In this document: positions 5,007 to 42,895 of the stretch, piece after piece
Position numbering within the stretch: the stretch's first letter is position 1
Layout: each line of letters opens with the position of its first letter
Assembly (NCBI GenBank): GCA_017548365.1
Contig: JAFZAC010000031.1
Coordinates: 5,248-69,247 of the forward strand
DNA from: Muribaculaceae bacterium
Lineage (GTDB): Bacteria; Bacteroidota; Bacteroidia; Bacteroidales; Muribaculaceae
DNA: 64,000 nt
Direction of reading: 5' to 3'
Translations under genes and position numbers: made by a program
Notes under the pieces: model-generated
Seen by the model: only the letters and a program-made list of their open reading frames with translations
What the model was told of the DNA's origin: nothing
Databases searched by the model: none

Positions 5007-5681
5007 TTATTTAGCCTTCTTGAACTTAGCTTTTTTGATGTCGTAGACAACCTTTTTTGTTACGATAGATGAATAGCGCGTGAAACTCTCTCCAAGGAAG
5101 AAATCCTCAAGATTGCACTGTGCTACAAGAGTGTTGCCTTCAAGCTTCATCTCTATCATGGCAAAGTAAACAGCGCTCTTAAGTTCTTCTCGTAATTGAT
5201 TTGACGCATTTGGCAAAATGAAATCGTCTACGGTGGGTGGAGTAAAGAACGCTGCTGTCTCGAGCTGCCTCCACTTGGTATCATAGAATGTGATGCGGCT
5301 GTCTTTATAAGGTGTTTCCACAGTCTCTATTACAACAACGACTGTGTCACGCGACGACTTGGGAAGCATCTTCATCTCTACAGTTCTTGCCGATGAAGTC
5401 GAGATGAGCATATAGTCATCAGTGAGCTTCAGCAAGTGTGTCTCGCTTGTCTCCAGGTCGTTGACTACATCTTTTTTATATTCTTTTCCATAATAGTTGA
5501 GCAGTTCATATCTTGTTGACAAGGATAAAGAGTTGAATAAATCACCTTTTTCCTCAAGAAAAAGCTTCGAGATGCCATCATAGGTAATAGGCTCTACAAC
5601 ATCTGAAACCGGCCCTGCTTTGACCATCATCGACAGCATCATAACTGCCGAAAGAATCAAGAATTTCAAATTACTTTTCAT
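5007..5681 (-). CDS. DUF3256-family exported protein
   Basis: Signal peptide; KLTDDYMLISTS, EMKMLP and SRITFYDTKW patterns typical of this Bacteroidetes family. Confidence 0.6.
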   Translation of the reverse strand: MKSNLKFLILSAVMMLSMMVKAGPVSDVVEPITYDGISKLFLEEKGDLFNSLSLSTRYELLNYYGKEYKKDVVNDLETSETHLLKLTDDYMLISTSSARTVEMKMLPKSSRDTVVVVIETVETPYKDSRITFYDTKWRQLETAAFFTPPTVDDFILPNASNQLREELKSAVYFAMIEMKLEGNTLVAQCNLEDFFLGESFTRYSSIVTKKVVYDIKKAKFKKAK

Positions 5682-26800: not shown

Positions 26801-26951
26801 CAGCGAGAACAATATACCTGCCGGTATAGCCTCAAGCCGCAATGGCTACAAAACTGTGGTTGTTGGTTTCCCCTTCGAGACCATCAAGAACGAGAACGAG
26901 CGCAACGAATTCATGAACCGTGTGCTCAACTTCTTCTCAAACGAGCAATAA
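23886..26951 (+). CDS. Amidase_3-like protein with inserted Golvesin/xanthan-lyase-C-like module and Fn3 (usually annotated xanthan lyase/Fn3 protein)
   Basis: Signal peptide; WPSHG, VEDMY, SFCLHTDAG and LMELLSHQN amidase-type ligands; an inserted WDVDMPEAGTYAIY...VWVYLGSF...ADAIK module; Fn3 LNWEPTPD...MNEGGRS. Confidence 0.7.
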   Translation: MAKYKKILIVALTLMALPVIQLRAQESEVTATAENTEITESAKQAIQQIIAANLPENMGIGTLKARNIDISGDSIKVDLSENFGDVPFTTESIDKLKKDIKSTLGEGYDDHKVYLTIAGNPIENYFSEFDNSYKRKHNSFVSPVDENRNYKKGLSGNIVAVWPSHGWYFEPKLNRWEWQRARMFQTVEDMYTHSYMIPYIIPMLENAGAYVWDARERDTHNFGAVVDNDGGNAQKGYNEHNGSKKWKDGEGNGFAYKRDNYRDFENPFDEGTYRMIEAEKDKKKEATASWDVDMPEAGTYAIYVSYKSLPNSAHDATYTINSLNGSQQFKVDQSMAGGVWVYLGSFELAKGINKNVVTLSNHSSDKKAVITADAIKVGGGKGNIVRRVALPTPENKAIAEKNDDLKYLGKEGINYQYVGSGEHPWFHLGSRYFLQWSGFPHEVYSTSTGVNDYVDDYRSRGEWVNYLAGGSDVLPNKPGLKVPVDVSFCLHTDAGTTTNDDIIGTLLIYCTTKNGKQFGKYENGTPRELSRQYANIVSTEVVNDIRAKYEPKWTRRGMWDKSYYEARVPEVPALLMELLSHQNFADMKYGLDPEFRFDVSRSIYKGIVKFIAKRDHRECVIQPLPVNSFTINKLSDNFFMLNWEPTPDPLCSSAVAKKYVVLEKVGANDGFKEIEIVDDPHYSIRIDDNEIHSFKIIAMNEGGRSFPSEALSIGVAKNSKGTVMVVNDFTRVSGPDWFDSGKMAGFYDEKDHGVPYMEQINYLGSQFEFRRNLEWRDDDAPGFGASRSNHETENIAGNTFNYPSLHGAAIMNAGYSFVSTSVKALENGDVDLTGYCAVDMIMGKQKETPTGRGAKPSRFKALTPGIMNALTNYTRYGGNVLMTGAYVASDIWDKDKPASNEVNFAQNVMGYTWVDGRATLRGEVYSVPSALKLSDGMSNLKFYNTLNSEFYAVESPDAIKASDSHGATILRYSENNIPAGIASSRNGYKTVVVGFPFETIKNENERNEFMNRVLNFFSNEQ

Positions 26952-26998: not shown

Positions 26999-28438
26999 AT
27001 GGAATCGAAATTTCGCATACCAATTGTCATTTGCGCCCAAGCTACCATCACAAGTTGTGACGGAGACTTGCCGCTTAAAGTGCTCTTTGACGAAGTGAAC
27101 CTCATGGGCTATGACAAGCATAACTCATGGGCTCATTCCTTGAAAGTTGTTGGTAGCGAAGAATCAAACTATGCGATTTACATTTTACAGCCAACCCACA
27201 TTGAGCTTGGTCATATGGCGTTGAGGCGCATGATGAAGGTTGCTCAAGACACTGACGCTACTATGGTATATTGTGACCATTTAAATCGCATGCCCAATGG
27301 CTCGCTCGTCAAGCACCCAGTTATTGACTGCCAGGAAGGCTCACTGCGCGACGATTTCGATTTTGGTCCTGTAGTCTTAATAAACAAAAATGCTCTCAGT
27401 AAAGCCTGTGGTGAAATATATAACGATTTTGAGGAATTACAATACTCTGGATTCTATGCCGTGAGACTGGCTTTGTCTAGATACGGAAAAATTGTTCACA
27501 TTCCTGAATATCTTTACACCTGCGATGCATCTGATTCACGCAGCAGCGGTGAACGCATCTTTGACTATCAACGTGAAGAAGAGACCGACAAACAGAAGGA
27601 AATGGAAGCTGTGTGCACTTGGCACTTAACAAAAATCGGCGCATTCCTAAATCCTGGGCAGTATAAAGACGTGGACCTTACTCAGGGCGAATTCCCTGTT
27701 GAGTGTTCTGTTATCATTCCTGTTTTAAACCGCGTGAACGTTATTAGTGATGCCATCAAAAGCGTGCTAGCCCAAGAGACACCGTTCAATTTTAACCTCA
27801 TCGTCATCGACAACCACTCAACCGATGGCACCACCGAAGCCATCGACGAGTTTGCCGGCGACCCGCGCCTCATCCACATCATTCCCGAGCGTTATGACTT
27901 GGGGATAGGCGGATGCTGGAACTTGGGCATCTACGACGAGCGTTGCGGACGCTTTGTCATTGGGCTTGACAGCGACGACCTCTTTGACAGCCCTTCGGCA
28001 ATCGACACAATGGTCAAAAAATTCTATGAAGACAATGCCGCAATGGTAGTTGGCAGCTATAAGATTGTTGACCACAATCTTCAAGAGGTTCTTCCTGGTA
28101 TTATCGCACATAGAGAATGGACACTAGAAAATGGCCGCAACAACCTGCTCAGGGTTAACGGCATTGGCGGTCCCCGCGCATTTTTTACACCTATCTACCG
28201 CGAGATATGTCTGCCATGCAGCAGTTATGGCGAAGACTACGGCATGGGACTGATGATTTCACGCAACTATCGTGTGGGTCGCGTTTGGGACGTTATGACA
28301 CTAGCCCGCCGTGGTGATGACAACACCGACTCCAACCTCTCCATCGAACAAGAAAACGCAAACAACTTCTATAAAGACCGACTTCGCTCATGGGAAGTTC
28401 AGGCGCGTATTGCACTTAACAAGAATAAAATTCAATAA
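26999..28438 (+). CDS. Two-domain glycosyltransferase family 2 (paralogue 1)
   Basis: N-terminal GSLRDDFDFG domain; C-terminal SVIIPVLNR, IDNHSTDGT, LDSDD and YGEDY motifs. Confidence 0.85.
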   Translation: MESKFRIPIVICAQATITSCDGDLPLKVLFDEVNLMGYDKHNSWAHSLKVVGSEESNYAIYILQPTHIELGHMALRRMMKVAQDTDATMVYCDHLNRMPNGSLVKHPVIDCQEGSLRDDFDFGPVVLINKNALSKACGEIYNDFEELQYSGFYAVRLALSRYGKIVHIPEYLYTCDASDSRSSGERIFDYQREEETDKQKEMEAVCTWHLTKIGAFLNPGQYKDVDLTQGEFPVECSVIIPVLNRVNVISDAIKSVLAQETPFNFNLIVIDNHSTDGTTEAIDEFAGDPRLIHIIPERYDLGIGGCWNLGIYDERCGRFVIGLDSDDLFDSPSAIDTMVKKFYEDNAAMVVGSYKIVDHNLQEVLPGIIAHREWTLENGRNNLLRVNGIGGPRAFFTPIYREICLPCSSYGEDYGMGLMISRNYRVGRVWDVMTLARRGDDNTDSNLSIEQENANNFYKDRLRSWEVQARIALNKNKIQ

Positions 28439-28455
28439 ATCAAAATATTACTCAA

Positions 28456-29940
28456 ATGACAAAGATTAATTGCTTTATCCCATTTGCCAATGCCGACCAG
28501 GCACAGGCTACAGTTGATGGATTGAAGGCCAATCCATTAGTAAACAAAATCTATTTGCTTGCCAATGATGAGGCCCAGGGCACTATCGACGGCTGCGAGA
28601 TGCTCAAGGTGAATAACCTCACATCGACCGCCACTATGAAGGCTATTGCCGAGCGCAGTGACGCATGCGTGACATTACTTTACACCAAGTATGTAACACT
28701 CAAGTTCGCGCCTTATGCCATTGAGCGTTTTGTAAAAATACTTGCCGACACTCAGAGCGGTATGGTTTATGCCGACCACTACAACGTTACCGACAAGGGC
28801 GCCGACAAAGCTCCAGTAATTGATTATCAGATGGGTTCTCTGCGCGATGATTTCGACTTTGGCTCAGTGCTGGTTTACTGTGGTGAGTGCTTCAAGAAAG
28901 CCGCTGCAGCAATGAAGGCCGACTATGAATTTGCCGGTCTCTACGACCATCGCCTCAAGCTGTCGCAATTCGCGACCATCACCCATATCAATGAGTTCCT
29001 TTATAGCGACGTAGAGCTTGACACTCGCAAGAGCGGCGAGAAGATTTTTGACTATGTTGATCCTCGCAACCGTGGTCGCCAAATTGAGATGGAGGCTGCC
29101 TGCACCGAGCATCTGAAGGAGATTGGCGGTTATTTGGCACCCACCAAGGTGGTTGACGGCAAAGAAGTACCAAACTTCAAGCACATTGAATTTGATCACG
29201 ACAAGTTTGAGGTTGAGGCAACAGTAATGATACCCGTGCGCAACCGCATCCGCACCATCCGCGACGCCATCAACAGCGTTCTTAATCAGAAGACCAATTT
29301 CAAGTTCAATCTCATGGTAGTTGACAACTTCTCGACCGACGGCACTCGCGAGGCCATCGCCGAATATGACGACCCACGCCTCATCCACATCATTGCCGAC
29401 TTCTACGACATGGGAATTGGCGGTTACTGGAATCTTGCCGCCCATCATGAGAAGGCTGGTAAGTTTGTAGTTCAGCTTGATAGCGACGATATGTACAAAG
29501 ACGAGAACACTTTGCAGACCATGGTTAACGCCTTCTACGAGCAAAACGTGGCAATGGTTGTCGGCACCTATCTGATGACCGACATCAACTGCAACCCCAT
29601 TCCTCCAGGCGTGATTGACCACAAAGAATGGACTCCAGAGAATGGCCGCAACAATGCTCTCCGCATCAACGGTCTTGGCGCTCCCCGCGCATTCTACACT
29701 CCCGTGCTTCGTGAGGTCATGCTACCCAACACCAGCTATGGTGAGGACTACGCACTTGGTCTGAACATTTCACGCACTTACCAGATAGGCCGCGTTTACG
29801 AGCCTGTTTATATGTGCCGTCGCTGGGACGACAACAGCGATGCCAACGTGGATGTTGTTAAGATGAACAATAACAACCTCTACAAAGACCGCATGCGCAC
29901 TTGGGAGCTTATGGCTCGCATCGCGCTTAACAAAAAATAA
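28456..29940 (+). CDS. Two-domain glycosyltransferase family 2 (paralogue 2)
   Basis: Same architecture: GSLRDDFDFG, VMIPVRNR, VDNFSTDGT, LDSDD and YGEDY. Confidence 0.88.
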   Translation: MTKINCFIPFANADQAQATVDGLKANPLVNKIYLLANDEAQGTIDGCEMLKVNNLTSTATMKAIAERSDACVTLLYTKYVTLKFAPYAIERFVKILADTQSGMVYADHYNVTDKGADKAPVIDYQMGSLRDDFDFGSVLVYCGECFKKAAAAMKADYEFAGLYDHRLKLSQFATITHINEFLYSDVELDTRKSGEKIFDYVDPRNRGRQIEMEAACTEHLKEIGGYLAPTKVVDGKEVPNFKHIEFDHDKFEVEATVMIPVRNRIRTIRDAINSVLNQKTNFKFNLMVVDNFSTDGTREAIAEYDDPRLIHIIADFYDMGIGGYWNLAAHHEKAGKFVVQLDSDDMYKDENTLQTMVNAFYEQNVAMVVGTYLMTDINCNPIPPGVIDHKEWTPENGRNNALRINGLGAPRAFYTPVLREVMLPNTSYGEDYALGLNISRTYQIGRVYEPVYMCRRWDDNSDANVDVVKMNNNNLYKDRMRTWELMARIALNKK

Positions 29941-29957: not shown

Positions 29958-30938
29958 ATGAGCCGCCGTTACAACGAAGAAATAACCCAGTTGTGGGCAA
30001 GACAACACGCTGAGTGGGACACCGTAAGAAAGAATTACGGCAACCTCTATAATGCACTCACTCGCACCATAAAGGTGGGTGTAAATACGTTCGTTTTGCA
30101 ATACAACCCCGAGCGTTTACGTTCTTCGGCAGCAAACATTGACGCAAAAGCAATAAGTGAACGTCCCTGCTTCTTGTGTAACGAGAACCAGCCACCAGAG
30201 CAAGAAACTGTGATGTGGGAAGATAAATATAAGATACAGGTTAACCCCTACCCCATCTTCAAGCGCCACCTCACCATCTCGGCCGTAGAGCACACTCCTC
30301 AGTTAATCTCAGGCCGCTTTGGCGACATGATGCGTCTTGCTCGAGACCTAAAAGACTATGTGGTGTTTTACAATGGTCCTCATAGTGGAGCTTCGGCTCC
30401 CGACCACATGCACTTCCAGGCGGGGTTACGTGACGAGCTGCCCATATGCAGTGAACTACCTTGGCTAACGATGAGAGTAATCAACAGCGGCGCATGTTTT
30501 TTGAGCTACAATATCAGCTCGCTACGACCAGTGTTCTACATTGACACCTCCAGCTTAGAGGATGGCGAGAAATACTTATGTGAGCTGCTCAATTTCTTGC
30601 CACAGAAAGAAGGGCATGACGAACCAATGGTCAACATCTTGTGCTGGTATGATTACAACTCATGGAAGATAGCATTGTTTCCACGCAGCAAGCACCGTCC
30701 ATCGTGCTATGGCACCAATGATGACCAATTTATCATTAGCCCTGCATCGGTCGATTTGGGCGGCTTGATAGCCGTGGCTCGTGAAGAAGACTTTTATAGA
30801 CTTACCTTCCCTGATGTGACATCCATCTTATCAGATGTGTGTCTAAATGAAATTGAAGTAGCAAAAATTGCTGACAACTTAACCAACTATTACACTTTAA
30901 TAAAACTTACAAACTATGGCACAAGTTCCCCAAGTTAG
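29958..30938 (+). CDS. DUF4922 family, HIT/GalT-like HxHxQ nucleotidyltransferase/phosphorylase
   Basis: QYNPER, RPCFLC, NPYPI, HLTI, GASAPDHMHFQAG and HRPSCY motifs. Confidence 0.75.
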   Translation: MSRRYNEEITQLWARQHAEWDTVRKNYGNLYNALTRTIKVGVNTFVLQYNPERLRSSAANIDAKAISERPCFLCNENQPPEQETVMWEDKYKIQVNPYPIFKRHLTISAVEHTPQLISGRFGDMMRLARDLKDYVVFYNGPHSGASAPDHMHFQAGLRDELPICSELPWLTMRVINSGACFLSYNISSLRPVFYIDTSSLEDGEKYLCELLNFLPQKEGHDEPMVNILCWYDYNSWKIALFPRSKHRPSCYGTNDDQFIISPASVDLGGLIAVAREEDFYRLTFPDVTSILSDVCLNEIEVAKIADNLTNYYTLIKLTNYGTSSPS

Positions 30939-32241
30939 AGTGGGCATAATGTCCGAACCTATAGTTGAGTTTGAATTCAACGGCGACTATCGTGTAGACG
31001 GCGAGAAAGTGACCGGCAACCACTTGGCGCGCTGCGTCGATGGCATGGTAGAGTGGAATGGCAAGAAATATCACGACATTCTCTTTGAGCCCATCAATGT
31101 CGACACCGACTCGTTCACTCTTGAGAATGTGACGATTGGCGTGAGCTTTCATTGGAAGCGTAAGGAAAATCAGACCTTCCGTGGAGCTCTGCATCTCATA
31201 GTTGAGAACGACAGCATTACCACAATCAACATCCTTTCAGTTGAGGAATATCTGTTGAGTGTGATTTCGAGCGAAATGAGTGCTAATGCCTCACTTGAAC
31301 TGCTCAAAGCTCATGCAGTGATTTCACGTAGCTGGCTTTTAGCTCAAATCAAGAAAGATAATGTTGACGCAACATCCGATCCTGGATTGCATCAGGAATT
31401 TGAAGCAAGCAGCGAGACCGAAGAAATAAAATGGTGGGACCGCGATGACCATGTGAACTTTGACGTATGCGCCGACGATCACTGTCAGCGCTACCAAGGC
31501 ATCACACGTGCCTCGACCGAGGCTGTGCGACAAGCCATCGAAGCCACATGGGGACAAGTGTTGATGTATGGCGGTGAGCTTTGCGACGCACGCTTCTCAA
31601 AGTCATGCGGCGGTGTTTATGAGCAGTTTGAGAACTGCTGGCAAGATGACCCACACCCCTATCTGGTGGCACGTCGCGACGATGATGACGAGATGAATTT
31701 CCCCGACCTCACTCGCGAAGACAATGCCGCCGACTGGATTCTTTCATCACCTCACGCTCATTGCAACACCACCGACAAGGGAATCCTGTCACAGGTACTC
31801 AATGATTATGACCAGGAGACCACCGATTTCTACCGTTGGCGAGTGGAATACACGCAAGAAGAGCTCAGCCGCATCATCAAGGAGCGCACTGGCGACGACT
31901 ATGGCCACATCATCGACCTCGAGCCTGTGGCACGAGGCACCAGCGGACGACTTTACAAGCTGCGAATCGTGGGCGAGAAGATGACCAAGACTATTGGCAA
32001 GGAGCTTACCATTCGCTATGCACTGTCTCCTTCGTGCCTCTACAGCTCGGCTTTCATTGTTGAGAAAATCAATGAGAACAACGCGCAATATCCCGAGAAA
32101 TTTGTGCTTCGTGGTGCTGGATGGGGACATGGTGTTGGTCTTTGCCAGATAGGTGCCGCAGTGATGGGCGCCAAGGGCTACGACTACAACCAAATCCTGC
32201 TCCACTACTTCATCGACGCACAAATCGAGACAATATATTAA
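30916..32241 (+). CDS. SpoIID/LytB domain peptidoglycan lytic enzyme
   Basis: EEYLLSVISSEM, LKAHAVISRS, CADDHCQRYQG and GWGHGVGLCQIGA motifs. Confidence 0.9.
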   Translation: MAQVPQVRVGIMSEPIVEFEFNGDYRVDGEKVTGNHLARCVDGMVEWNGKKYHDILFEPINVDTDSFTLENVTIGVSFHWKRKENQTFRGALHLIVENDSITTINILSVEEYLLSVISSEMSANASLELLKAHAVISRSWLLAQIKKDNVDATSDPGLHQEFEASSETEEIKWWDRDDHVNFDVCADDHCQRYQGITRASTEAVRQAIEATWGQVLMYGGELCDARFSKSCGGVYEQFENCWQDDPHPYLVARRDDDDEMNFPDLTREDNAADWILSSPHAHCNTTDKGILSQVLNDYDQETTDFYRWRVEYTQEELSRIIKERTGDDYGHIIDLEPVARGTSGRLYKLRIVGEKMTKTIGKELTIRYALSPSCLYSSAFIVEKINENNAQYPEKFVLRGAGWGHGVGLCQIGAAVMGAKGYDYNQILLHYFIDAQIETIY

Positions 32242-32270: not shown

Positions 32271-33599
32271 ATGAATGCATTAACAAAATTCAAACAGTCA
32301 CCCTGGGCATGGATACCAACTCTTTATTTTATTGAGGGCATACCTTATTTCCTTGTTAATGAGATATCAGTAATCTTATTCAAGAAAATGGGTGTTCCCA
32401 ATGGCCAAATGGCACTCTTCACGAGTCTTATATATCTCCCTTGGGTAATCAAACCCTTGTGGAGTCCGTTTGTCGACATCATCAAGAAGAAACGCTGGTG
32501 GATTGTAATGATGCAGATGCTCATGGCAACAACCTTAATCCTGCTCACCGTCACCATGCCATCGCCTGGAGAAGAGATGATAAAAGCGGGCACTACGCCA
32601 ATGAGCATGTTTACCGTTACTCTTATCTTTTTCATCATCACAGCATTTGCCTCGTCAACACACGATATAGCTGCCGACGGTTTCTACATGCTGGCACTGA
32701 CACAGAAAAACCAGTCAGCTTTTGTAGGAGTTCGTTCCACGTTCTACCGACTTGCCAATATTTTTGGAAATGGCGTGCTGGTGTGGATTGCCGGATATCT
32801 TGAGACCAAGACTTCAATTCCCGCAGGATGGAAAATCACAATGGGAATAGCTTCGGCCATCATGTGCTTATTCTACATTTACCACCTATTCTTCATTCCT
32901 CGCCCCGACAGTGACCGTTCCTCACTTGAAGGATCTTTAAAAAACAACAGTTCACAAGTGATGAAAGAGTTTGGACGTACTATTGTGACCTATTTCAAGA
33001 AACCCGGTGTGTGGATTGCTATCATCTTCATGCTGCTTTATCGCTTGCCCGAGGCCTTCCTGCTCAAGATGTGTAAGCCTTTCATGCTCGACCCAATAGA
33101 CAAGGGTGGTCTATCGATGACAACACAAGACGTGGGTCAAGCTTACGGCATCATTGGTGTGGCTGCCCTTTTAGCTGGTGGTATTCTTGGCGGAATATTC
33201 TCATCAAAAGTTGGTCTAAAGAAAGCCATTTGGCTAATGGCCGGTTGCATGACACTGCCTTGCCTAACCTTTGTATATCTCTCAATGGCTCAGCCCACAA
33301 ACTACTTCATCATCTGCACCTGCATCGTGATTGAGCAGTTTGGTTATGGCTTTGGATTCACAGCCTATATGCTCTACATGATGTTCTTCTCGGAAGGCGA
33401 GTTCAAGACCTCACACTATGCCCTGTGTACGGCATTCATGTCGCTGAGTATGATGATTCCAGGCATGTTTGCTGGCTACATACAGGAGTCTATAGGCTAC
33501 TCGGCATTCTTCTGGATGGCATTTGCTTGCAGTATAGCAACAATTGCTGTAACCTTCCTTGCCGACCGCAAAATTGATCCAGAATACGGACTCAAATAA
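32271..33599 (+). CDS. ampG: AmpG-like MFS muropeptide permease
   Basis: LPWVIKPLWSPFVD, ASSTHDIAADGFY and HYALCTAF motifs; 12-TM pattern; cluster context. Confidence 0.82.
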   Translation: MNALTKFKQSPWAWIPTLYFIEGIPYFLVNEISVILFKKMGVPNGQMALFTSLIYLPWVIKPLWSPFVDIIKKKRWWIVMMQMLMATTLILLTVTMPSPGEEMIKAGTTPMSMFTVTLIFFIITAFASSTHDIAADGFYMLALTQKNQSAFVGVRSTFYRLANIFGNGVLVWIAGYLETKTSIPAGWKITMGIASAIMCLFYIYHLFFIPRPDSDRSSLEGSLKNNSSQVMKEFGRTIVTYFKKPGVWIAIIFMLLYRLPEAFLLKMCKPFMLDPIDKGGLSMTTQDVGQAYGIIGVAALLAGGILGGIFSSKVGLKKAIWLMAGCMTLPCLTFVYLSMAQPTNYFIICTCIVIEQFGYGFGFTAYMLYMMFFSEGEFKTSHYALCTAFMSLSMMIPGMFAGYIQESIGYSAFFWMAFACSIATIAVTFLADRKIDPEYGLK

Positions 33600-33623: not shown

Positions 33624-34877
33624 ATGAAACGTCACATATTATTCATAACTTTAGCTATAGTGGCAATGGCAGCAAGTGCTGCTGTAAAACCAGGTATTGA
33701 GGTGCTGCGCGATAGAGGTTTTAAGGAACTACAAGGCAAGCGCGTGGGATTGGTGACAAACCCCAGTGGCATTGACAACAACCTCAAGTCAACAGTCGAC
33801 ATCCTCAACGAAGCACCTGGCGTGAAACTGGTAGCACTTTTCGGTCCTGAGCATGGAGTACGCGGCAATGCCCACGCAGGCGACAAAGTAGCCGACGATG
33901 TCGACCCTGCAACTGGCGTCAAGATGTATTCCCTATATGGCAAGACCCACGAGCCTACAACCGAAATGCTGAAGGACATTGATATTCTCATCTACGACAT
34001 CCAGGACATTGGCTGCCGCAGTTACACGTTCTATGCCACCATGGGAGTGTGCATGCAGGCCTGTGCCAAGCACAATAAAGAATTTATGGTCCTTGACCGC
34101 CCCAACCCCCTTGGAGGCAACAAGGTAGAAGGCAACCTTGTGGAAGAAGGCTATTTCTCGTTTGTGAGCAAGTATGCCATTCCTTACCTCTATGGTCTCA
34201 CTCCTGGCGAATTGGCGCAATATCTCAACGAAGAAGGCATCATTGGCAAGGAGTCAAAAACCGGCAAAAAGTGCAAGCTGACTGTCATCCCCATGGAAGG
34301 CTGGACTCGCGACATGAAGTTCCGCGACACCGGTATGCCCTGGGTACTCCCTTCTCCTCAGATTCCTGCTCCCGAGAACGCATTCTTCTATCCCGTGAGC
34401 GGCATCCTTGGCGAGTTGTATATCTTCAACACCGGCATTGGCTACACTTTGCCATTTGAATGTTTTGCCGCCTCTTGGATTGATGCTGAAGAGCTTGCAA
34501 AGAACATGAACGCACTGAATCTGCCAGGAATGCACTTCCGTCCCATCAACTACAAACCATTCTTTGCATTAAGCGTGGCAGTCGACAAGACATTGCAAGA
34601 GGTGCATGGTGTTCAGATTTATATCACCGACTTTGACAAGGCAAATCTTGTGCTCACTCAGTTCTACTTCCTTCAAGTGATTCACGAGATGTATCCCAAG
34701 AAGCAACTCTTTGAGCAGAATCCACAGCGCTATGCGATGTTTGACAAGGTGTGCGGCACAAAGGAAATTCGCGAGCGCTTCTGCAAACGCTATAAAGTAG
34801 AAGACATTATCGACTACTTCAATAAAGACACCGAAGCTTTTAAAGCAAAATCAAGCAAATATTACCTCTATGAGTAA
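33624..34877 (+). CDS. namZ: Exo-beta-N-acetylmuramidase NamZ (DUF1343)
   Basis: Signal peptide; VGLVTNPSG, LFGPEHG, YDIQDIGCRSYT, LDRPNP and PSPQIP motifs. Confidence 0.9.
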   Translation: MKRHILFITLAIVAMAASAAVKPGIEVLRDRGFKELQGKRVGLVTNPSGIDNNLKSTVDILNEAPGVKLVALFGPEHGVRGNAHAGDKVADDVDPATGVKMYSLYGKTHEPTTEMLKDIDILIYDIQDIGCRSYTFYATMGVCMQACAKHNKEFMVLDRPNPLGGNKVEGNLVEEGYFSFVSKYAIPYLYGLTPGELAQYLNEEGIIGKESKTGKKCKLTVIPMEGWTRDMKFRDTGMPWVLPSPQIPAPENAFFYPVSGILGELYIFNTGIGYTLPFECFAASWIDAEELAKNMNALNLPGMHFRPINYKPFFALSVAVDKTLQEVHGVQIYITDFDKANLVLTQFYFLQVIHEMYPKKQLFEQNPQRYAMFDKVCGTKEIRERFCKRYKVEDIIDYFNKDTEAFKAKSSKYYLYE

Positions 34878-34937: not shown

Positions 34938-37727
34938 TTGGACGAGAAACATAAAAAATATCTCAAGCGCATTAGGGAGTTCATCCCTAAAGACCGCATC
35001 TATACCGACGACTTGCACTGCCTGGCGTGGGGCACTGATGCTGGCTTCTACCGCAACATTCCGCAAGTGGTGGTGCGCTCCAGCAACGAGCAGGAAGTAT
35101 CGAAACTGCTAAGCATTGCCAATGAGATGCAGCTTCCAGTAACATTCCGCGCTGCCGGCACAAGTTTGAGCGGACAGACCAACACCGACTCCATCCTCAT
35201 TGTGGCAGGCAAGAACTGGGAAAACTATGAGGTTGCTCCCGACGCCAGCTACATCAAGCTTCAGCCTGGAATTGTAGGCAGTGAAGTCGACAAGATTCTC
35301 GCCCGTCACAACCGCGCATTCACCCCCGACCCTGCCAGCAAGAACTCATCGATGGTGGGTGGCATCGTCATCAACAATGCCAGCGGCATGAGCTGTGGCA
35401 CACATGCCAACAGCGACCGTATGATGCTCTCTATGCGCATCGTCATGGCCGACGGCACCGTTCTCGACACTGGCGACAAGCGCAGTCGCGACAATTTCAG
35501 TTTATCTCATCCACAATTCATCAAGCGCATTGAAGAGATTCGCGACCGAGTAATGGCCGACGAGGAGCTTGTGGCACGCATTCGTCGCAAGTATTCCATC
35601 AAGAACGTAACAGGTCTCAATATTTCGCCGTTTGTACTCTACAACGACCCATTCGACATCATCACACATTTGATGGTTGGCAGTGAGGGAACTCTAGCAT
35701 TTGGCAGCGAGTTCACTATGAAGACTGGACATCTCTACCCCTGCCGCGCCAGCGCCATGCTATATTTCCAAGACATGCGTGAGTCGTGCGAAGCAGTGGT
35801 AGCTATGAAGAAAGGCCCTGTGCACTGCGCCGAGATTCTTGACAAAAAATCACTTGCAAGTGTGGATGACAATACTGGTGAAAATCTCACAGCAGTACTC
35901 ATTCAGACCTTTGCCGACAGTCAAGAAGAGCTGCAGAGCAATATCGACCAAATCATGTCGATTCTCGAGCCTTTCCACCTCTTTGTGCCAGCCAACTTTA
36001 CCGATGATCCAAAAGTATATGGCAAGTACTGGGCTATACGCTCAGGAATCTTCCCCAGTGTGGGCGGCACTCGTCCCCTTGGCACCACAGTACTTATCGA
36101 GGATGTGGCATTCCACATTGAGGATCTTCCCGAGGCCACTGTTGATTTGGCGCAGATGCTGATCGACTATGGTTATGACGACAGTTGCATCTACGGCCAC
36201 GCACTTGAGGGCAATTACCACTTCATAATTTCGCAGTCGTTTGACACAGATGAAGAAGTAAAGCGCTATGAAAACCTGATGCGCGCTGTAGTGAAGTTGG
36301 TTATCGACAAATATGACGGTTCGCTAAAGGCCGAGCATGGCACTGGCCGCAATATGGCTCCATTTGTCAAGAAAGAATGGGGCGAGAAGGCCTATCAAGT
36401 GATGCTTGACGTTAAGCAACTTTTCGATCCGAAAGGCATCCTCAACCCTGGTGTCATCTTCAACGACGACCCTGAATGCTTTATCAAGAACCTCAAGCCC
36501 ATGCCCTTAACCAATGACAACGTTAACAAATGCATTGAGTGCGGATTCTGTGAGGTGAACTGCGTGAGCAGCGGATTGACACTTTCATCACGCCAGCGCA
36601 TCATTGTTCAACGCGAGATATCTCGACTAAAAGCGACAGGCGAAGACCCTGAGCGATTGAAACGGCTTGAGAAGCAATATCAATACTACGGCGAGGCCAC
36701 TTGCGCCGCCGACGGACTATGCTCTACTTCTTGCCCAATGGGAATCAATGTGGGAGAGCTCACTCACGACCTGCGAGCTGAACAGCACGGCAAGGGCACT
36801 ATGGCACACAGTTTTGGAGATAGTGTAGCCCGCCATTTCGCCATAACCAAAGGGGCACTCAAGTCGCTGCTCTATGTTGCTGGAGCAGCTCACACCGTGC
36901 TTGGCGACAGTGGAGTGATTGCCTTGGGCAAAGCTCTGCACTCCATAGGAGCTCCATTATGGACTCCCTCCACACCTAATCCTCACAAGATGAAATCGCT
37001 TAACCAGCAAGAGAGCGACAAGAAGGTTGTGTACTTCCCCAGCTGCCTAAACCAGTCGCTGGGACGCGACAAGCATGGCGCAGAAGTCGACCTCGTCGAC
37101 AAGGTGGTATCCTTCCTCAACAAGGCTGGATGGCAAGTCATCTATCCCGAGAACATGAATAACTTGTGCTGCGGCATGATTTGGAACAGCAAGGGTATGC
37201 CCGACATAGCTCAGCAAAAGACTGATGAGCTCGAACAGGCACTGCTCAAAGCCAGCGATGACGGCAAACTGCCAGTGGTGTGCGACCAAAGTCCATGTCT
37301 GCATCATATGCGAAAGCACATGAAGCAAGTGAAACCGCTGGAACTCATGGAATTTATCCACGACCTTGTAGCTCAAGATTTGGATTTCACTCCGACCGAC
37401 GAACCCATTGCTCTGCATCTTACCTGCTCCACAAGGCTGATGAAAATTGACGACAAAATACTCGATCTTGCCAAGCGATGCTCCACCAACGTGCTGATTC
37501 CCGAAGGTGTGGGATGCTGTGGCTTTGCCGGTAACAAAGGATTCACCCATCCCGAGCTCAACGCCTATGCCTTGCGCAAACTGCGTCCTCAAATCGAGGC
37601 AGCAGGCATACATCGTGGTTTCAGCAATAGCCGCACTTGCGAGATAGGCCTCACCACCCACAGTGGTGTACCCTACCAATCTTTAATTTACCTTATCGAT
37701 GAAGTGACAACAAAAAAAGACAAATAA
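34938..37727 (+). CDS. FAD-binding, Fe-S-containing D-lactate dehydrogenase-like oxidoreductase (Dld-II type)
   Basis: TTG start; FAD-PCMH (FRAAGTSLSGQ, PDPAS), KAEHGTG, ferredoxin motifs CIECGFC and CAADGLCSTSCP, two CCG domains. Confidence 0.82.
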   Translation: MDEKHKKYLKRIREFIPKDRIYTDDLHCLAWGTDAGFYRNIPQVVVRSSNEQEVSKLLSIANEMQLPVTFRAAGTSLSGQTNTDSILIVAGKNWENYEVAPDASYIKLQPGIVGSEVDKILARHNRAFTPDPASKNSSMVGGIVINNASGMSCGTHANSDRMMLSMRIVMADGTVLDTGDKRSRDNFSLSHPQFIKRIEEIRDRVMADEELVARIRRKYSIKNVTGLNISPFVLYNDPFDIITHLMVGSEGTLAFGSEFTMKTGHLYPCRASAMLYFQDMRESCEAVVAMKKGPVHCAEILDKKSLASVDDNTGENLTAVLIQTFADSQEELQSNIDQIMSILEPFHLFVPANFTDDPKVYGKYWAIRSGIFPSVGGTRPLGTTVLIEDVAFHIEDLPEATVDLAQMLIDYGYDDSCIYGHALEGNYHFIISQSFDTDEEVKRYENLMRAVVKLVIDKYDGSLKAEHGTGRNMAPFVKKEWGEKAYQVMLDVKQLFDPKGILNPGVIFNDDPECFIKNLKPMPLTNDNVNKCIECGFCEVNCVSSGLTLSSRQRIIVQREISRLKATGEDPERLKRLEKQYQYYGEATCAADGLCSTSCPMGINVGELTHDLRAEQHGKGTMAHSFGDSVARHFAITKGALKSLLYVAGAAHTVLGDSGVIALGKALHSIGAPLWTPSTPNPHKMKSLNQQESDKKVVYFPSCLNQSLGRDKHGAEVDLVDKVVSFLNKAGWQVIYPENMNNLCCGMIWNSKGMPDIAQQKTDELEQALLKASDDGKLPVVCDQSPCLHHMRKHMKQVKPLELMEFIHDLVAQDLDFTPTDEPIALHLTCSTRLMKIDDKILDLAKRCSTNVLIPEGVGCCGFAGNKGFTHPELNAYALRKLRPQIEAAGIHRGFSNSRTCEIGLTTHSGVPYQSLIYLIDEVTTKKDK

Positions 37728-37729
37728 AT

Positions 37730-38887
37730 ATGGCAAATAACAACAAACGACTCCTCTCGCTCGACATACTGCGAGGAATAACGATAGCTGGCATGTTGCT
37801 AGTGAACAACCCTGGCACATGGAGCCACATCTATGCCCCGCTCGAGCATGCCGAGTGGATTGGACTGACACCCACCGATCTGGTGTTCCCGTTCTTCATG
37901 TTTGTGATGGGCGTGTCGATGTTCTTCTCGTTGCGAAAGTTTAACTTCAAGCTCAGCGGAAGCTTGATGCTCAAGATATGCCGTCGCACTATTATCCTAT
38001 TCCTTATTGGATGGGTTGTACAGTGGTTTGGAATGTGGTTGAGAGGACTTTACAATCCCGAATCACAGTTCTTTGCCGACATGTTTGGCAAGTTGCGCAT
38101 CCTGGGCGTGTTCCAACGCTTGGCACTTGTCTATTTCTTCGGCTCAATGATTGCCGTGCTGTTCAAGAGCAAGTTCATTCCATGGATAATAGGACTTATT
38201 CTCATTGTATATGCCTTCATCTTGGGATTTGGCAATGGCTATGAGTTCTCGCTCGACAATATTCTCTCGCGCATCGACTGTGCCGTGCTCGGTGAAAATC
38301 ACATGTATCACGAAGAGGCTTTTGGTCTGAAACTCGCTCTCGACCCCGAGGGAATACTCAGCACACTGCCTTGTATTGCCCATGTGCTCATAGGCTTCAT
38401 GGTGGGCAAATGCATTAACACTGTACACAACAACCGCGACCGCATAGTTGAGATTGCAGTGTGGGGAGCACTCATGCTGCTTGTGGGATGGCTGCTGCAA
38501 TACGGAATTCCATGCAGCAAGAAAGCTTGGACATCTAGTTATGTTCTTATCACTTGCGGTATGGCATCATGTATTCTTGCGATGCTCATATATGCTATCG
38601 ACATCAAGGGTCACAACCGCTGGTGCCGCTTCTTCCAGGCATTTGGAATCAACCCGCTTTTCTGCTATTTAGTGGGCACCATTTTTGCCATAGTGTTTGG
38701 CACACTTCGCTTCGGCACCAATGCCGAAGGCGACCCAATTACTATAAAATCACTCATTTTCGACGGCTGGAGTGCCGTCACCACTACCCCCGAGGCAGCA
38801 TCTTGCCTCTATGCCATCACCTTCGTGCTCATCACCTGGTGCTTTGGATATTTCCTATACAAGAAAAAAATATATATAAAGATATAG
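37730..38887 (+). CDS. HGSNAT/DUF5009-like polytopic membrane protein (position of murT in murT-murK-murQ operons)
   Basis: RLLSLDILRG, MLLVN, DLVFPFF, GVFQRLA, DPEGILS and KKAWTSSY motifs; ~11 TM helices. Confidence 0.75.
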   Translation: MANNNKRLLSLDILRGITIAGMLLVNNPGTWSHIYAPLEHAEWIGLTPTDLVFPFFMFVMGVSMFFSLRKFNFKLSGSLMLKICRRTIILFLIGWVVQWFGMWLRGLYNPESQFFADMFGKLRILGVFQRLALVYFFGSMIAVLFKSKFIPWIIGLILIVYAFILGFGNGYEFSLDNILSRIDCAVLGENHMYHEEAFGLKLALDPEGILSTLPCIAHVLIGFMVGKCINTVHNNRDRIVEIAVWGALMLLVGWLLQYGIPCSKKAWTSSYVLITCGMASCILAMLIYAIDIKGHNRWCRFFQAFGINPLFCYLVGTIFAIVFGTLRFGTNAEGDPITIKSLIFDGWSAVTTTPEAASCLYAITFVLITWCFGYFLYKKKIYIKI

Positions 38888-38968
38888 TTGACTAGACAAC
38901 AAAAATACATATCAACAATCCACAATCACGATTCTCGAATTCAATTTATAACTTAAAAATATTACATT

Positions 38969-39811
38969 ATGATTTTAATTGCTGACTGCGGCTCCACCAA
39001 GATTGACTGGTGTCTGCTTAACGGAAAAAAGAAAGTAGCGCAAATCTTCACTACCGGCATGAACGCTCTGCTCATGACCGAAGAGGAGATGGCCGAGTGC
39101 ATCATGACCGAACTCATGCCCAGCCTTCAAGGCTATGAGGTAACCGAGATTTTCTACTATGGTGCAGGAATCATTAATGATGAGATTAAAAATCAGGTAA
39201 TTAATGCGCTCAAGCGCAATATGCCAAACGTGACCAAAGTTGAGGTCGATAGCGACCTCCTGGCTGCTGCCAGAGCATTGTGCCAGTACGAGCCTGGAAT
39301 CGCATGCATTCTGGGCACCGGCAGCAACAGCTGCTATTACGACGGCGAAAAAGTCGTTGACAATGTTTCACCACTGGGCTATATTTTAGGTGATGAAGGT
39401 AGTGGTGCCGTTCTTGGCAAACTTCTTGTGGGCGATGTTCTCAAGAAGCAACTGCCAGAACATCTGTGCGAGAAGTTTCTCAAGGAGTACAACCTCGACC
39501 GCAACACCATTATCGACCGAGTGTATCGCAAACCAGCCGCCAACCGCTTCCTGGCGCAATTTGCTCCATTCCTGGAGCGCAATATCAATGAGCCTTCAAT
39601 ACGTGCCCTCGTTCTGCGTTCATTCACCGACTTCTTTGTTCGCAACGTGGCAAACTATCCTAAATACAAGGAACTTCCTTGCAATTTCGTAGGTTCAATC
39701 GCATTACTCCAGAAGGATGTACTTACCGAGGCTGCCAGCAAACTTGGCATCACAATTGGCAACATCATCCAAGCCCCAATGGAAGGACTTATAAAATATC
39801 ACTCTAAATAA
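38969..39811 (+). CDS. murK: N-acetylmuramic acid/N-acetylglucosamine kinase (BadF family)
   Basis: IADCGSTKIDW, FYYGAG, ILGTGSNS and LGDEGSG motifs; directly upstream of murQ. Confidence 0.75.
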   Translation: MILIADCGSTKIDWCLLNGKKKVAQIFTTGMNALLMTEEEMAECIMTELMPSLQGYEVTEIFYYGAGIINDEIKNQVINALKRNMPNVTKVEVDSDLLAAARALCQYEPGIACILGTGSNSCYYDGEKVVDNVSPLGYILGDEGSGAVLGKLLVGDVLKKQLPEHLCEKFLKEYNLDRNTIIDRVYRKPAANRFLAQFAPFLERNINEPSIRALVLRSFTDFFVRNVANYPKYKELPCNFVGSIALLQKDVLTEAASKLGITIGNIIQAPMEGLIKYHSK

Positions 39812-39874
39812 TGCACTATGCATTTGTGTCTAAAACTTAACACATTAAACTTATAACTTAACACTTACTAAGTT

Positions 39875-40696
39875 ATGGCATTTATTAAGATAAGCGAACA
39901 GCCCTCTCTCTACAACGACCTGGAGAAGAAGAGCGTGCATGAGCTCCTCACCGAGATCAACCAGGAAGACCACAAGGTCGCCGATGCTGTTCAAAAAGCT
40001 ATTCCTCAAATCGAAAAGCTTGTCACGGGCATCGTGGAGAGGATGAAGCGGGGAGGACGCATCTTCTACATGGGAGCCGGCACCAGTGGTAGGCTCGGTG
40101 TGCTCGATGCCAGCGAGATTCCTCCCACTTTTGGCATGGACCCAGGCTGGATCATTGGCTTGATTGCTGGTGGCGACTACGCCTTGCGCAACGCTGTGGA
40201 AAACGCCGAAGACGACGAGAAACAAGGATGGAAAGACTTGCAAGAGCACAACATCACTAGCAACGACACAGTGATTGGCATTGCGGCAAGCGGCACCACA
40301 CCTTATGTGATTGGCGCTTTGCGCGATGCTCGCGCTAATGGCTGTCTAACAGCTGCCATCACTAGCAACCCCGACGCCCCAATCAGCGAGGCCGCCGAAA
40401 TCCCCATCGAGATGATTGTTGGTCCTGAATATGTCACCGGCAGTAGCCGCATGAAGAGTGGCACGGGTCAAAAACTCATCTGCAATATGATTTCAACAAG
40501 TGTGATGATTCAGATGGGACGCGTGAAGGGCAACAAGATGGTGAACATGCAGCTCACCAACAAAAAACTCGTAGACCGCGGCACCCGCATGGTGGTCGAA
40601 GAGCTTAGGCTCTCTTACGATGAGGCCAAACGCCTGCTGCTCTTGCACGGCAGCGTTAAGAAAGCCTGCGATGCCTATCGCGGCATTACCGAATAA
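39875..40696 (+). CDS. murQ: N-acetylmuramic acid 6-phosphate etherase
   Basis: GAGTSGRLGVLDASE, AVENAED, ASGTTPY and GSSRMKSGT motifs. Confidence 0.96.
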   Translation: MAFIKISEQPSLYNDLEKKSVHELLTEINQEDHKVADAVQKAIPQIEKLVTGIVERMKRGGRIFYMGAGTSGRLGVLDASEIPPTFGMDPGWIIGLIAGGDYALRNAVENAEDDEKQGWKDLQEHNITSNDTVIGIAASGTTPYVIGALRDARANGCLTAAITSNPDAPISEAAEIPIEMIVGPEYVTGSSRMKSGTGQKLICNMISTSVMIQMGRVKGNKMVNMQLTNKKLVDRGTRMVVEELRLSYDEAKRLLLLHGSVKKACDAYRGITE

Positions 40697-40722: not shown

Positions 40723-41394
40723 ATGAAACGTATCATTTTGACATTAATTGCTGTGGCAGCGGCTTGCATGGCGATTCAGGCACAACCACTCGAACGCACT
40801 GCGAACCAAGACAAGTACTATGTGCGTCGAGCTACACACTTCGACGACCTACCAGTATATCGCCACGACATCATCATGCTGGGCAATAGCCTAACCGATG
40901 GTGCCGAATGGAACGAGCTTTTCAACAATCCACACATAAAAAACCGTGGCATCATTGGCGATATCGTTCAAGGTCTCTATGAGCGCATGGAGCCAATTCT
41001 CAAGGGTAAGCCACGCAAAATCTTCATTCTGAGCGGTGTCAATGACGTTTCGCACGGCGTTGACGGCGACAGCATTGGACGAGCTATGGAGAAGCTAATC
41101 GTGCTAATCAAGAAGCGTTCGCCTAGGACTAAGATTTATCTCCAGTCGATGCTACCGTTCAACACCGACGTGCAGATGTGGAAACTGCTCGTTGGCCGTG
41201 AGCAAGTGGTCATTGACGGCAACCGCGCCATGGAGGAAGTTTGCAAGCGCCAAGGCGTGACGTGGATAAACCTCTACCCTCTCTTCGTTGACGAGAACGG
41301 CAAGCTGCGCGAGGACCTCACCAACGATGGTCTGCACTTGCTGGGACCAGGCTACCTGATATGGCGCGATGCCATAAAGAAATATATGAAGTAG
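40723..41394 (+). CDS. Exported SGNH/GDSL esterase
   Basis: Signal peptide; blocks GNSLT, NRGIIG, GVND and DGLH. Confidence 0.85.
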   Translation: MKRIILTLIAVAAACMAIQAQPLERTANQDKYYVRRATHFDDLPVYRHDIIMLGNSLTDGAEWNELFNNPHIKNRGIIGDIVQGLYERMEPILKGKPRKIFILSGVNDVSHGVDGDSIGRAMEKLIVLIKKRSPRTKIYLQSMLPFNTDVQMWKLLVGREQVVIDGNRAMEEVCKRQGVTWINLYPLFVDENGKLREDLTNDGLHLLGPGYLIWRDAIKKYMK

Positions 41395-41463: not shown

Positions 41464-42651
41464 ATGTCTAAGAAAATTACCGAAAAAGTGACTTGGGTGG
41501 GTAAAGTTGACTGGGAACTCACTCATTTCCATGGCGATGAATTATCGACCTTCAAGGGGTCAAGCTATAATTCCTATCTTATCAAAGACAAGAAGACGGT
41601 GCTTATCGACACTGTGTGGGGACCTTATGACCGTGAATTTGTGGCTCGCCTCAAGGAGATTGTGGACCTCAAGACCATCGACGCCATCATCATGCAGCAC
41701 AACGAGTGCGACCACAGCGGTGCGCTGCCCGAGCTGTTGCGCGAGATTCCCGATGTGCCCATCTACTGCACTGCCAAGGGAAAGGCAATAATTCAAGGCC
41801 ACTACCATCAGGACTGGAACTTCGTGACCGTAAAGACTGGCGACAAGCTCGAGATTGGCGGCTCTACACTCACCTTTATCGAGGCTCCCATGCTGCACTG
41901 GCCCGACACAATGTTCACCTATATGGACGGCGAGAACATCCTGTTCTCCAACGACGGCTTTGGACAGCACTACGCTACTGAGTCCCTCTACGACGACCGC
42001 GTTGACATGGCCGAGATGCTCTATGAGGCAAAGAAATACTATGCCAATATCCTCGCACCGTTCAGCATGATGGTGACACGCAAGCTCAACGAGATTCTCG
42101 CCATGAATCTGCCATTGAACCTTGTTTGTCCAAGCCATGGTGTGATTTGGCGCAAAAATATCAACCTCATTATTGAGAAATACCAACAATGGGCAGCCAA
42201 CTACCAGGAGAACAAGATTACTATCGTCTACGACACCATGTGGAACAGCACCCGCATCATGGCGCAAGAGATAGTACGTGGCATTCAGGAAGTTGACCCA
42301 GAAGTTGAGGTAAAGATTTACAATGCTGCTCATGAGGACAAGAACGATGTTCTCACCGAGATTTTCGCGTCAAAAGCTGTGCTTGTAGGCTCGCCAACCA
42401 TCAACAACGGTTTGGCTCACGCCGTTACAGGTTTGCTTGAGATGGCAAAGGGAATGAAACTCAAAAACAAGAAAGCTGCAGCTTTCGGAAGCTACGGATG
42501 GAGCGGCGAAGGTATTAAGCTTCTTAGCGGTCTGCTCAGTGGCTGTGGCTTTGAGCTTATTAACGACGGCATCCGCATCCAGTGGGTTCCCGACCAGGCT
42601 GCAATCGAGCAATGCCGCGAATATGGTCGCGAGCTCGCTAAGGCGCTGTGA
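41464..42651 (+). CDS. fprA: Flavodiiron protein (FprA/NorV-type O2/NO reductase)
   Basis: HNECDH, HWPD, SNDGFGQH and PSHG diiron ligands plus a flavodoxin domain (YDTMWNST, FGSYGWSG). Confidence 0.93.
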   Translation: MSKKITEKVTWVGKVDWELTHFHGDELSTFKGSSYNSYLIKDKKTVLIDTVWGPYDREFVARLKEIVDLKTIDAIIMQHNECDHSGALPELLREIPDVPIYCTAKGKAIIQGHYHQDWNFVTVKTGDKLEIGGSTLTFIEAPMLHWPDTMFTYMDGENILFSNDGFGQHYATESLYDDRVDMAEMLYEAKKYYANILAPFSMMVTRKLNEILAMNLPLNLVCPSHGVIWRKNINLIIEKYQQWAANYQENKITIVYDTMWNSTRIMAQEIVRGIQEVDPEVEVKIYNAAHEDKNDVLTEIFASKAVLVGSPTINNGLAHAVTGLLEMAKGMKLKNKKAAAFGSYGWSGEGIKLLSGLLSGCGFELINDGIRIQWVPDQAAIEQCREYGRELAKAL

Positions 42652-42724: not shown

Positions 42725-42895
42725 CGTTGGTCATTATTAAATTCATTTATGAAGGGTTGGTTTATATAGATTACAGAGAATAATTTGGTTGAAAGGTTGT
42801 GAGGACATTTTTTTTGTCCATTTTTTGGAAATACCACAACATTTTTCTATTTTTACAAGCTGAAAAAGTTTTGTGACCAAAAAACTGCAAATACT

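Follow-up and report, generated by a model that had tools for sequence, protein, structure and literature searches.

What is a large flavin and iron-sulfur oxidoreductase doing in a gene cluster for the salvage of bacterial cell walls? The question is raised by a 64,000-nucleotide stretch of DNA (the window; positions 5,248 to 69,247 of contig JAFZAC010000031.1, GenBank assembly GCA_017548365.1) from a rumen-type Muribaculaceae bacterium, in which a gene for a 929-residue protein, here called dld, lies among genes for the catabolism of N-acetylmuramic acid (MurNAc). One of these genes encodes MurQ, the etherase that converts MurNAc 6-phosphate (MurNAc-6-P) to N-acetylglucosamine 6-phosphate (GlcNAc-6-P) and D-lactate. 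We find that in Muribaculaceae, and in some other Bacteroidales, dld has become established as part of the peptidoglycan-salvage operon. Judging from sequence and gene context, we propose with a probability of about 0.75 that its product is a quinone-linked D-lactate dehydrogenase whose dedicated substrate is the D-lactate that MurQ sets free.

A predicted lactate dehydrogenase beside MurNAc salvage genes

A preliminary description of the window had placed a 929-residue oxidoreductase with flavin adenine dinucleotide (FAD), 4Fe-4S and CCG domains between namZ and the gene in the position of murT, only 2 nt before the next start codon. The open reading frame (ORF), the Pfam matches and the stop and start positions all agree with this placement: the TAA of dld is followed by 'AT' and then by the ATG at 37730, and on the other side a gap of 60 nt separates namZ from dld. 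The N-terminal part of the protein carries FAD_binding_4 (residues 42-178; PF01565, 109.5 bits) and FAD-oxidase_C (residues 270-506; PF02913, 146.8 bits), which together make up a VAO/PCMH fold. A 4Fe-4S dicluster follows at residues ~529-604 (PF13183, PF12838, PF13534), and the C-terminal part has two CCG domains of the HdrD/GlpC-like type, with a Pfam match at residues 825-903 (PF02754, 24.5 bits; cut-off 20.6). A motif search located the Fe-S motifs CIECGFCEVNC at residue 532 and CAADGLCSTSCP at residue 589, together with two CCG motifs at residues 744 and 860. No transmembrane helix was found in the protein, which has no hydrophobic stretch of sufficient length.

Four residues of the flavin part, H421, H428, E466 and H467, align with the GHxxxGNxH and EHG motifs shared by mouse LDHD, LctD and glycolate oxidase. 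Specifically, GHALEGNYHF and AEHGTG of the window protein stand opposite GHVGDGNFHC and GEHGIG of LDHD, and two deposited LDHD chains differ solely by an Ala at the position aligned to H428. With LDHD and D2HGDH structures in mind, we take these four residues to be the metal (His-His-Glu) and catalytic positions of D-2-hydroxyacid dehydrogenases. Among 100 dld homologues from all genomic contexts, 100 positions are invariant, among them those of the metal site and every cysteine of the clusters.

The best match of the FAD domain in the PDB is LctD of the Acetobacterium lactate dehydrogenase (7QH2, E 1.5e-25), and glycolate oxidase and mouse LDHD are matched as well. The surroundings of the homologues are also informative. 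A lactate permease gene lies directly upstream of the homologue in Marinifilum flexuosum (54% identity) and in a metagenome-assembled genome (MAG) of Prolixibacteraceae (46%); LctP is encoded immediately upstream at L086 and L091 and within 10 kb of the homologue at no fewer than 11 loci, many of them Prevotella-type. In two Oceanospirillaceae MAGs (46% identity; L094), the homologue comes after a divergent GntR/FCD regulator gene and genes for the tripartite ATP-independent periplasmic (TRAP) transporter DctPQM, the same layout as in the lldP-dld-II unit of Pseudomonas with its D-LldR regulator. From these permease and GntR-TRAP contexts, we read the dld family as a lactate-utilisation family of the Dld-II kind, that is, the Fe-S type of NAD-independent D-lactate dehydrogenase (Fe-S D-iLDH), and we liken it to SO_1521, PP_4737 and HP1222 by architecture and description. 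Dld-II is defined as a Dld-like enzyme with an extra C-terminal Fe-S domain (PMC4117512). The same source states that Dld-II of Shewanella oneidensis supports the use of D-lactate (citing Pinchuk et al. 2009) and that HP1222 of Helicobacter pylori is required for growth on D-lactate, and PMC13411273 refers to a multidomain D-lactate dehydrogenase of Pseudomonas putida KT2440 that is independent of NAD (citing Jiang et al. 2017).

Could the enzyme act on another 2-hydroxyacid, such as L-lactate, glycolate, D-2-hydroxyglutarate or D-malate, and owe its place in the operon to some other need? According to PMC4117512, Cj1585c of Campylobacter jejuni, a relative of Dld-II, is a specific L-lactate dehydrogenase, and stereospecificity thus varies in the family; in addition, the window protein gives partial matches to models of other enzymes. 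All of these, however, fall far under their cut-offs: GlcD, the glycolate oxidase subunit, scores 195 bits against 567.9 (TIGR00387), YdiJ, the D-2-hydroxyglutarate dehydrogenase, 126.2 bits against 1350 over residues 3-508 only (NF049975), and GlpC, subunit C of the anaerobic glycerol-3-phosphate dehydrogenase, 82.3 bits against 278 over residues 526-922 (NF008369). We accordingly rejected all three identities, and the window protein is not an orthologue of YdiJ. Moreover, by established MurQ chemistry D-lactate is the sole 2-hydroxyacid made by the pathway that the operon encodes, the active-site positions do not vary across contexts, lactate permease operons among them, and nothing in the genomic context points to another substrate. 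We therefore hold a different substrate to be unlikely.

Conservation of the link between dld and murQ

To see how far the association extends, we compared 151 Muribaculaceae genomes, in which orthologues of dld are 57-92% identical at the protein level. The orthologue is present in 80 of the 151 genomes, MurQ likewise in 80, and both in 79 (Fisher's exact p = 4e-41). In 72 of these 79, dld and murQ lie on one contig and on the same strand, with dld upstream and 1990-3328 bp between the two, and in the other seven one of the two genes mostly sits near a contig end. The sole genome with the enzyme but without MurQ is an 81%-complete assembly in which dld is at a contig end. Because the 70 genomes that lack MurQ also lack the orthologue, we conclude that in Muribaculaceae the enzyme is not retained without MurQ, and chance does not account for the adjacency, which is found again in 72 of the 79 genomes with both genes. 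The preliminary description had asked whether the adjacency was unique to this genome; it is not, and it reappears in other Bacteroidales families in rearranged forms. All the computational checks that this description had named turned out in its favour.

The place of dld after namZ and before murT is conserved, as is its 2-nt spacing. The window's own genome (97% complete) has dld once. The closest named relative of its product is 91% identical and comes from a Muribaculaceae MAG of the water-buffalo omasum, and further close relatives are labelled Muribaculaceae as well. On a protein tree each of the 27 Muribaculaceae rows carries the salvage-linked label, and the family forms a monophyletic clade. 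Recent transfer or insertion of dld was considered and rejected, given this clade and a GC content (0.49-0.50) like that of the neighbouring genes. The gene is thus old and vertically inherited within Muribaculaceae, and the earlier wording that it had been 'inserted' into the MurNAc operon is apt relative to the cluster of Tannerella forsythia, not as a recent event.

The association is also visible at the level of the order. In a sample of 301 Bacteroidales genomes from ~145 GTDB families, 33 encode a full-length dld homologue and 66 encode MurQ, which is present in 28 of the 33 genomes with the enzyme versus 38 of the 268 without (p = 2e-16). We then compared neighbourhoods at 20 order-level and 80 named loci. 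The order namZ-dld-murT-murK-murQ recurs in two further GTDB families and in the isolate Bacteroides reticulotermitis JCM 10512 (L034). Elsewhere the genes are partly lost or rearranged: dld-murK-murQ (G403, L087), dld-murT-murK-murQ with the upstream genes missing (L029, L030), dld-murT (G402, 43% identity), namZ-dld alone (G329, L062, L067, L077, L081), murK-murQ...ampG...dld (L082, L085), dld divergent from murK-murK-murQ-GT2... (G442), where GT2 is a family 2 glycosyltransferase gene, and dld divergent from namZ-GT2-DUF4922-lytB-ampG (G395, 46% identity). Salvage genes lie within ~10 kb of dld at 48 of the 88 loci with adequate flanks. Mapped on a FastTree phylogeny of 100 proteins, the salvage-linked label requires at least eight changes where branches are well supported, a number as low as which was reached in none of 500 shuffles. 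On this tree, linkage to salvage genes would have arisen or been rearranged at least eight times, and when a linkage persists although the genes are rearranged, this is good support for a functional tie.

Outside Bacteroidales the picture differs. MurQ is found in 214 of the 301 genomes of a phylum sample, and because it is so common there, co-occurrence is uninformative. That sample added 40 genomes outside the order with a dld homologue, with the position of murQ listed for 26 and not for the other 14; among the 26 with both positions none shows dld-murQ adjacency, and the closest pair is 135 kb apart. Co-localisation, which the preliminary description suggested quantifying across Bacteroidota, was thus seen in Muribaculaceae and other Bacteroidales, and in none of the 26 genomes outside the order with both positions listed.

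These data bear on a second alternative, in which dld encodes a general respiratory D-lactate dehydrogenase for D-lactate that is of environmental or fermentative origin or arises when methylglyoxal is detoxified, with no dedicated link to MurNAc. Free D-lactate is present in rumen and gut contents, and in Prevotella, Coprobacter, Marinifilum and Prolixibacteraceae the orthologue has no link to murQ and often has a lactate permease gene close by. A general role is difficult to reconcile, however, with the loss of the enzyme from the 70 family genomes without MurQ, with its conserved place and spacing, and with the repeated emergence or rearrangement of the linkage on the tree. Furthermore, no LctP-family permease was found in the window's genome, while the same search finds LctP in the Bacteroides thetaiotaomicron and Escherichia coli controls. 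We consider a purely general role improbable.

Several observations nonetheless weigh against a dedicated role in MurNAc catabolism. One family genome (G054, 99% complete) has MurQ and lacks the enzyme, and the co-occurrence within the family partly reflects that a single operon is inherited or lost as a whole. Beyond the family, the Prevotella-type orthologues are without a link to murQ, and T. forsythia and many other MurQ-bearing Bacteroidota do without a linked enzyme. Despite the lack of LctP, lactate may be taken up through another carrier, and the L-lactate specificity of Cj1585c, described above, points the same way.

A more radical idea concerns the chemistry itself: in the salvage-linked Bacteroidales clade, the enzyme might oxidise the lactyl ether of MurNAc or MurNAc-6-P and free pyruvate in parallel to MurQ. 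This is chemically conceivable, the VAO/PCMH fold includes enzymes that act on ethers, the window protein gives a weak match to alkyl-dihydroxyacetonephosphate synthase, and namZ-dld pairs exist without an adjacent murQ. Yet the enzyme nearly always co-occurs with MurQ, and its metal site for hydroxyacids, conserved in full, does not differ from the one in the homologues of lactate permease operons, which makes such an oxidative etherase extremely improbable. A milder version of the idea is more likely, namely that MurNAc catabolism in these anaerobes depends obligatorily on quinone/fumarate respiration for the removal of D-lactate.

Some related proteins and contigs in the samples deserve separate mention. 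Five of the 70 family genomes without MurQ and the orthologue (G009, G045, G087, G116 and G137) encode a full-length Dld-II-like protein that is merely 34-35% identical to the window protein; by sequence we assign these five to a separate paralogous clade. In the order sample, seven genomes (G197, G204, G233, G266, G347, G356 and G428) encode proteins of ~985 residues that are 30-32% identical over the FAD half only and may be YdiJ-like enzymes. Bacteroidales-type copies of dld, 55-69% identical, also appear on contigs assigned to [Ruminococcus] lactaris (L084), a 'planctomycete' (L061) and Thermoguttaceae (L079). The first of these carries the entire namZ-dld-murTKQ unit, and all three are probably mis-binned.

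The gene cluster and a proposed route for the lactyl group

The genes around dld are collected in Table 1. From the first GT2 gene through the gene after murQ, intergenic gaps range from -23 to 81 nt. The Bacteroidetes -7 box (TAnnTTTG) is absent from every + strand gap between the first GT2 gene and the flavodiiron gene; the region has two matches to it, both within genes. The first + strand intergenic terminator-like site is at 42803. An internal promoter or terminator that would split the cluster was sought and rejected, as the gaps lack TAnnTTTG and the sigma-70-type and terminator scans stayed at chance level. The gap lengths and the lack of internal signals fit one transcript, and we predict an operon.

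Table 1 Genes of the MurNAc salvage cluster and its flanks, in window coordinates
Feature	Position	Strand	Evidence or remark
1021-aa ORF, Golvesin_C domain, weak Amidase_3 match	23886-26951	+	47 nt upstream of first GT2 gene
GT2 glycosyltransferase, first of tandem pair	26999-28438	+	PF00535, 79 bits
GT2 glycosyltransferase, copy conserved in related loci (tblastn)	28456-29940	+	PF00535, 73.5 bits
DUF4922 protein, 3' end overlaps next gene by 23 nt	29958-30938	+	PF16269, 204 bits
SpoIID/LytB-type lytic transglycosylase, TfLytB counterpart	30916-32241	+	TIGR02669, 172 bits vs cut-off 83
AmpG-like major facilitator superfamily (MFS) muropeptide/disaccharide permease	32271-33599	+	TIGR00901 best match, 184 bits, below cut-off 350
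NamZ exo-beta-N-acetylmuramidase (GH171)	33624-34877	+	NamZ_N 287 bits, NamZ_C 127 bits
dld, 929-aa oxidoreductase	34938-37727	+	TTG start; TAA stop 37725-37727
Polytopic membrane protein in murT position	37730-38887	+	HGSNAT/NagX/DUF5009-like
MurK, MurNAc 6-kinase	38969-39811	+	PDB 8OW9 (T. forsythia MurK with MurNAc), E 7.6e-87
MurQ, MurNAc-6-phosphate etherase	39875-40696	+	NF003915, 378 vs 168 bits; TIGR00274, 317 vs 302
Secreted GDSL/SGNH esterase, signal peptide MKRIILTLIAVAAACMAIQAQ	40723-41394	+	26 nt after murQ
Flavodiiron-type protein (ODP metallo-beta-lactamase + flavodoxin)	41464-42651		69 nt after esterase

The start codon of dld deserves attention here, for it is TTG at 34938 and ATG in every relative inspected. 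Because homologues have their ATG at precisely the codon of this TTG (window, TTGGACGAG; 91%-identical relative, ATGGACGAC) and only four open codons lie upstream of it, it is the genuine start, and it could lower the translation of dld relative to the neighbouring genes. One might go further and suppose that the rare start codon, an internal promoter or a terminator uncouples dld functionally from the expression of the operon; TTG is indeed unusual, and there would in principle be room for a regulatory element in the 60 nt that follow namZ. Against this stand an intact reading frame, 91% identical to that of a relative with ATG at the same codon, the 100 invariant positions among the homologues, and gaps free of a -7 box or terminator-like site with the next gene only 2 nt after the stop. 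Such uncoupling is very improbable.

Downstream of dld, the kinase matches the T. forsythia MurK structures 8OW9 and 8OQW (E ~1e-87) better than it matches the paralogous K1058, and the MurK and MurQ of the window are clear orthologues of their T. forsythia counterparts. The gene directly after dld is less straightforward. It had been called 'murT-like', and it does occupy the murT position; its sequence, however, places its product among membrane proteins of the HGSNAT/NagX/DUF5009 type and shows homology with the human enzyme heparan-alpha-glucosaminide N-acetyltransferase (PDB 8VKJ, E 4e-22). We presume it to be the MurNAc importer, with orthology to T. forsythia MurT resting on position. 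Tf_MurT is described in papers as a sodium-symporter or MFS protein, and either these descriptions are loose or the gene in the murT position encodes a different protein.

Other features of the cluster vary among related loci. The 1021-aa ORF at the upstream end corresponds in position to the 'putative xanthan lyase' gene at the head of the T. forsythia cluster, and we treat it as a candidate operon member only. The GT2 gene is duplicated in tandem in none but the closest relatives (L022, L025, L028), and most loci have one GT2 gene followed by DUF4922. The GDSL esterase gene is retained after murQ in most related loci. Its product is a possible peptidoglycan de-O-acetylase that could strip 6-O-acetyl groups from MurNAc, which would otherwise prevent phosphorylation by MurK. 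The flavodiiron gene lies ~4.5 kb further off in the 91% relative (L022), and its adjacency to the esterase gene is thus not conserved.

The genome also encodes the rest of the route, as the preliminary description had supposed in speaking of a complete MurNAc catabolic route: beside murK and murQ, it has NagA above its curated cut-off and two Glucosamine_iso (NagB-type) proteins. For the electrons, it has MenA and a b558-type anchor of succinate dehydrogenase/fumarate reductase, because of which a menaquinone-to-fumarate chain should be available to take electrons from the CCG domains.

We thus envisage the following pathway. In the periplasm, NamZ and LytB would trim glycan strands, and AmpG and the murT-position protein would import GlcNAc-MurNAc and MurNAc. 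MurK would then make MurNAc-6-P, and MurQ would split it in the step established for this enzyme. The GlcNAc-6-P would proceed to fructose-6-phosphate via NagA and NagB, and the D-lactate would be oxidised to pyruvate in the cytoplasm by the dld dehydrogenase. From FAD, electrons would travel via both [4Fe-4S] clusters and then the CCG domains to reach menaquinone and, after it, fumarate reductase. In this way the three-carbon lactyl group would be recovered as pyruvate, with ATP possible via acetate, and would neither be lost nor build up as D-lactate. Energy would come mainly from pyruvate through acetate formation, and the redox step need not couple to ion translocation. The sequences show the domains of the enzyme, the order of the genes, their conservation and co-occurrence, and that the remaining genes of the pathway are present; the D-lactate substrate, the quinone acceptor and the co-transcription with the salvage genes are what we infer, the quinone from the enzyme family.

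Such a pathway would have several consequences. It would provide a specific and testable function for many proteins of Muribaculaceae and other gut and rumen Bacteroidales that are labelled just 'FAD-binding oxidoreductase'. It would close the carbon and electron balance of anaerobic MurNAc catabolism, with the lactyl group (3 of the 11 MurNAc carbons) going to pyruvate and its electrons to the menaquinone/fumarate chain, and it would add to the picture of many gut Bacteroidales as consumers of the cell walls of other bacteria. From an evolutionary standpoint, one and the same enzyme family would be paired with a permease in relatives that live freely and, in gut lineages, with a substrate that arises inside the cell. 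As D-lactate harms ruminants and other hosts, a pathway that keeps it inside the cell is of some applied interest.

Comparison with known systems

The closest described counterpart of the cluster is that of T. forsythia, Tanf_08345-08385, whose nine genes encode a putative xanthan lyase, two glycosyltransferases, LytB, AmpG, NamZ1, MurT, MurK and MurQ. The two clusters share GT2, LytB, AmpG, NamZ, membrane protein, MurK and MurQ genes in the same order on one strand. To these the window adds the 929-aa enzyme, the DUF4922 gene, the second GT2 gene and the trailing secreted GDSL esterase gene; one of the 'two glycosyltransferases' of T. forsythia may itself be a DUF4922 protein, as the published list names none. 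In T. forsythia, MurT (08375) comes right after NamZ1 (08370) with no dehydrogenase between them, and the paper on that cluster, in its bioRxiv version, never mentions 'lactate'. The preliminary description knew of no account of the linkage, and our literature search likewise found none of a dehydrogenase gene inside a MurNAc or peptidoglycan-salvage operon; most subscription journals were outside that search, so that the linkage is apparently undescribed and its absence from the literature unproven.

The biochemical idea has precedents. For E. coli and an engineered Corynebacterium glutamicum growing on MurNAc, the general idea that a D-lactate dehydrogenase oxidises the MurQ-derived D-lactate is already published, and in the latter it has been put to use. 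These systems resemble the one proposed here in that the D-lactate from MurQ can be oxidised by a quinone-dependent D-lactate dehydrogenase; they differ in relying on a classic Dld without the Fe-S/CCG part, encoded outside the MurNAc operon.

As an enzyme, the window protein most resembles Dld-II and the Fe-S D-iLDHs, with a single chain of ~930 residues, an N-terminal FAD-linked oxidase, a 4Fe-4S dicluster and a C-terminal CCG part, and it is NAD-independent by architecture. What sets it apart from them is its gene, which is embedded in a MurNAc salvage operon and not placed beside a lactate permease or LldR gene. E. coli YdiJ has a similar fused FAD, Fe-S and CCG architecture. LctD of the LctBCD (Ldh-EtfAB) complex in 7QH2 works with EtfAB, NAD+ and ferredoxin, whereas the window protein has its own Fe-S/CCG module, and no etf genes were found near dld in the window. 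It is known that MurQ releases D-lactate and that respiratory dehydrogenases oxidise D-lactate, and the operon linkage is a logical extension of these known pathways. Relative to all these systems, the finding is a testable functional assignment for an abundant gut family and not a new kind of system.

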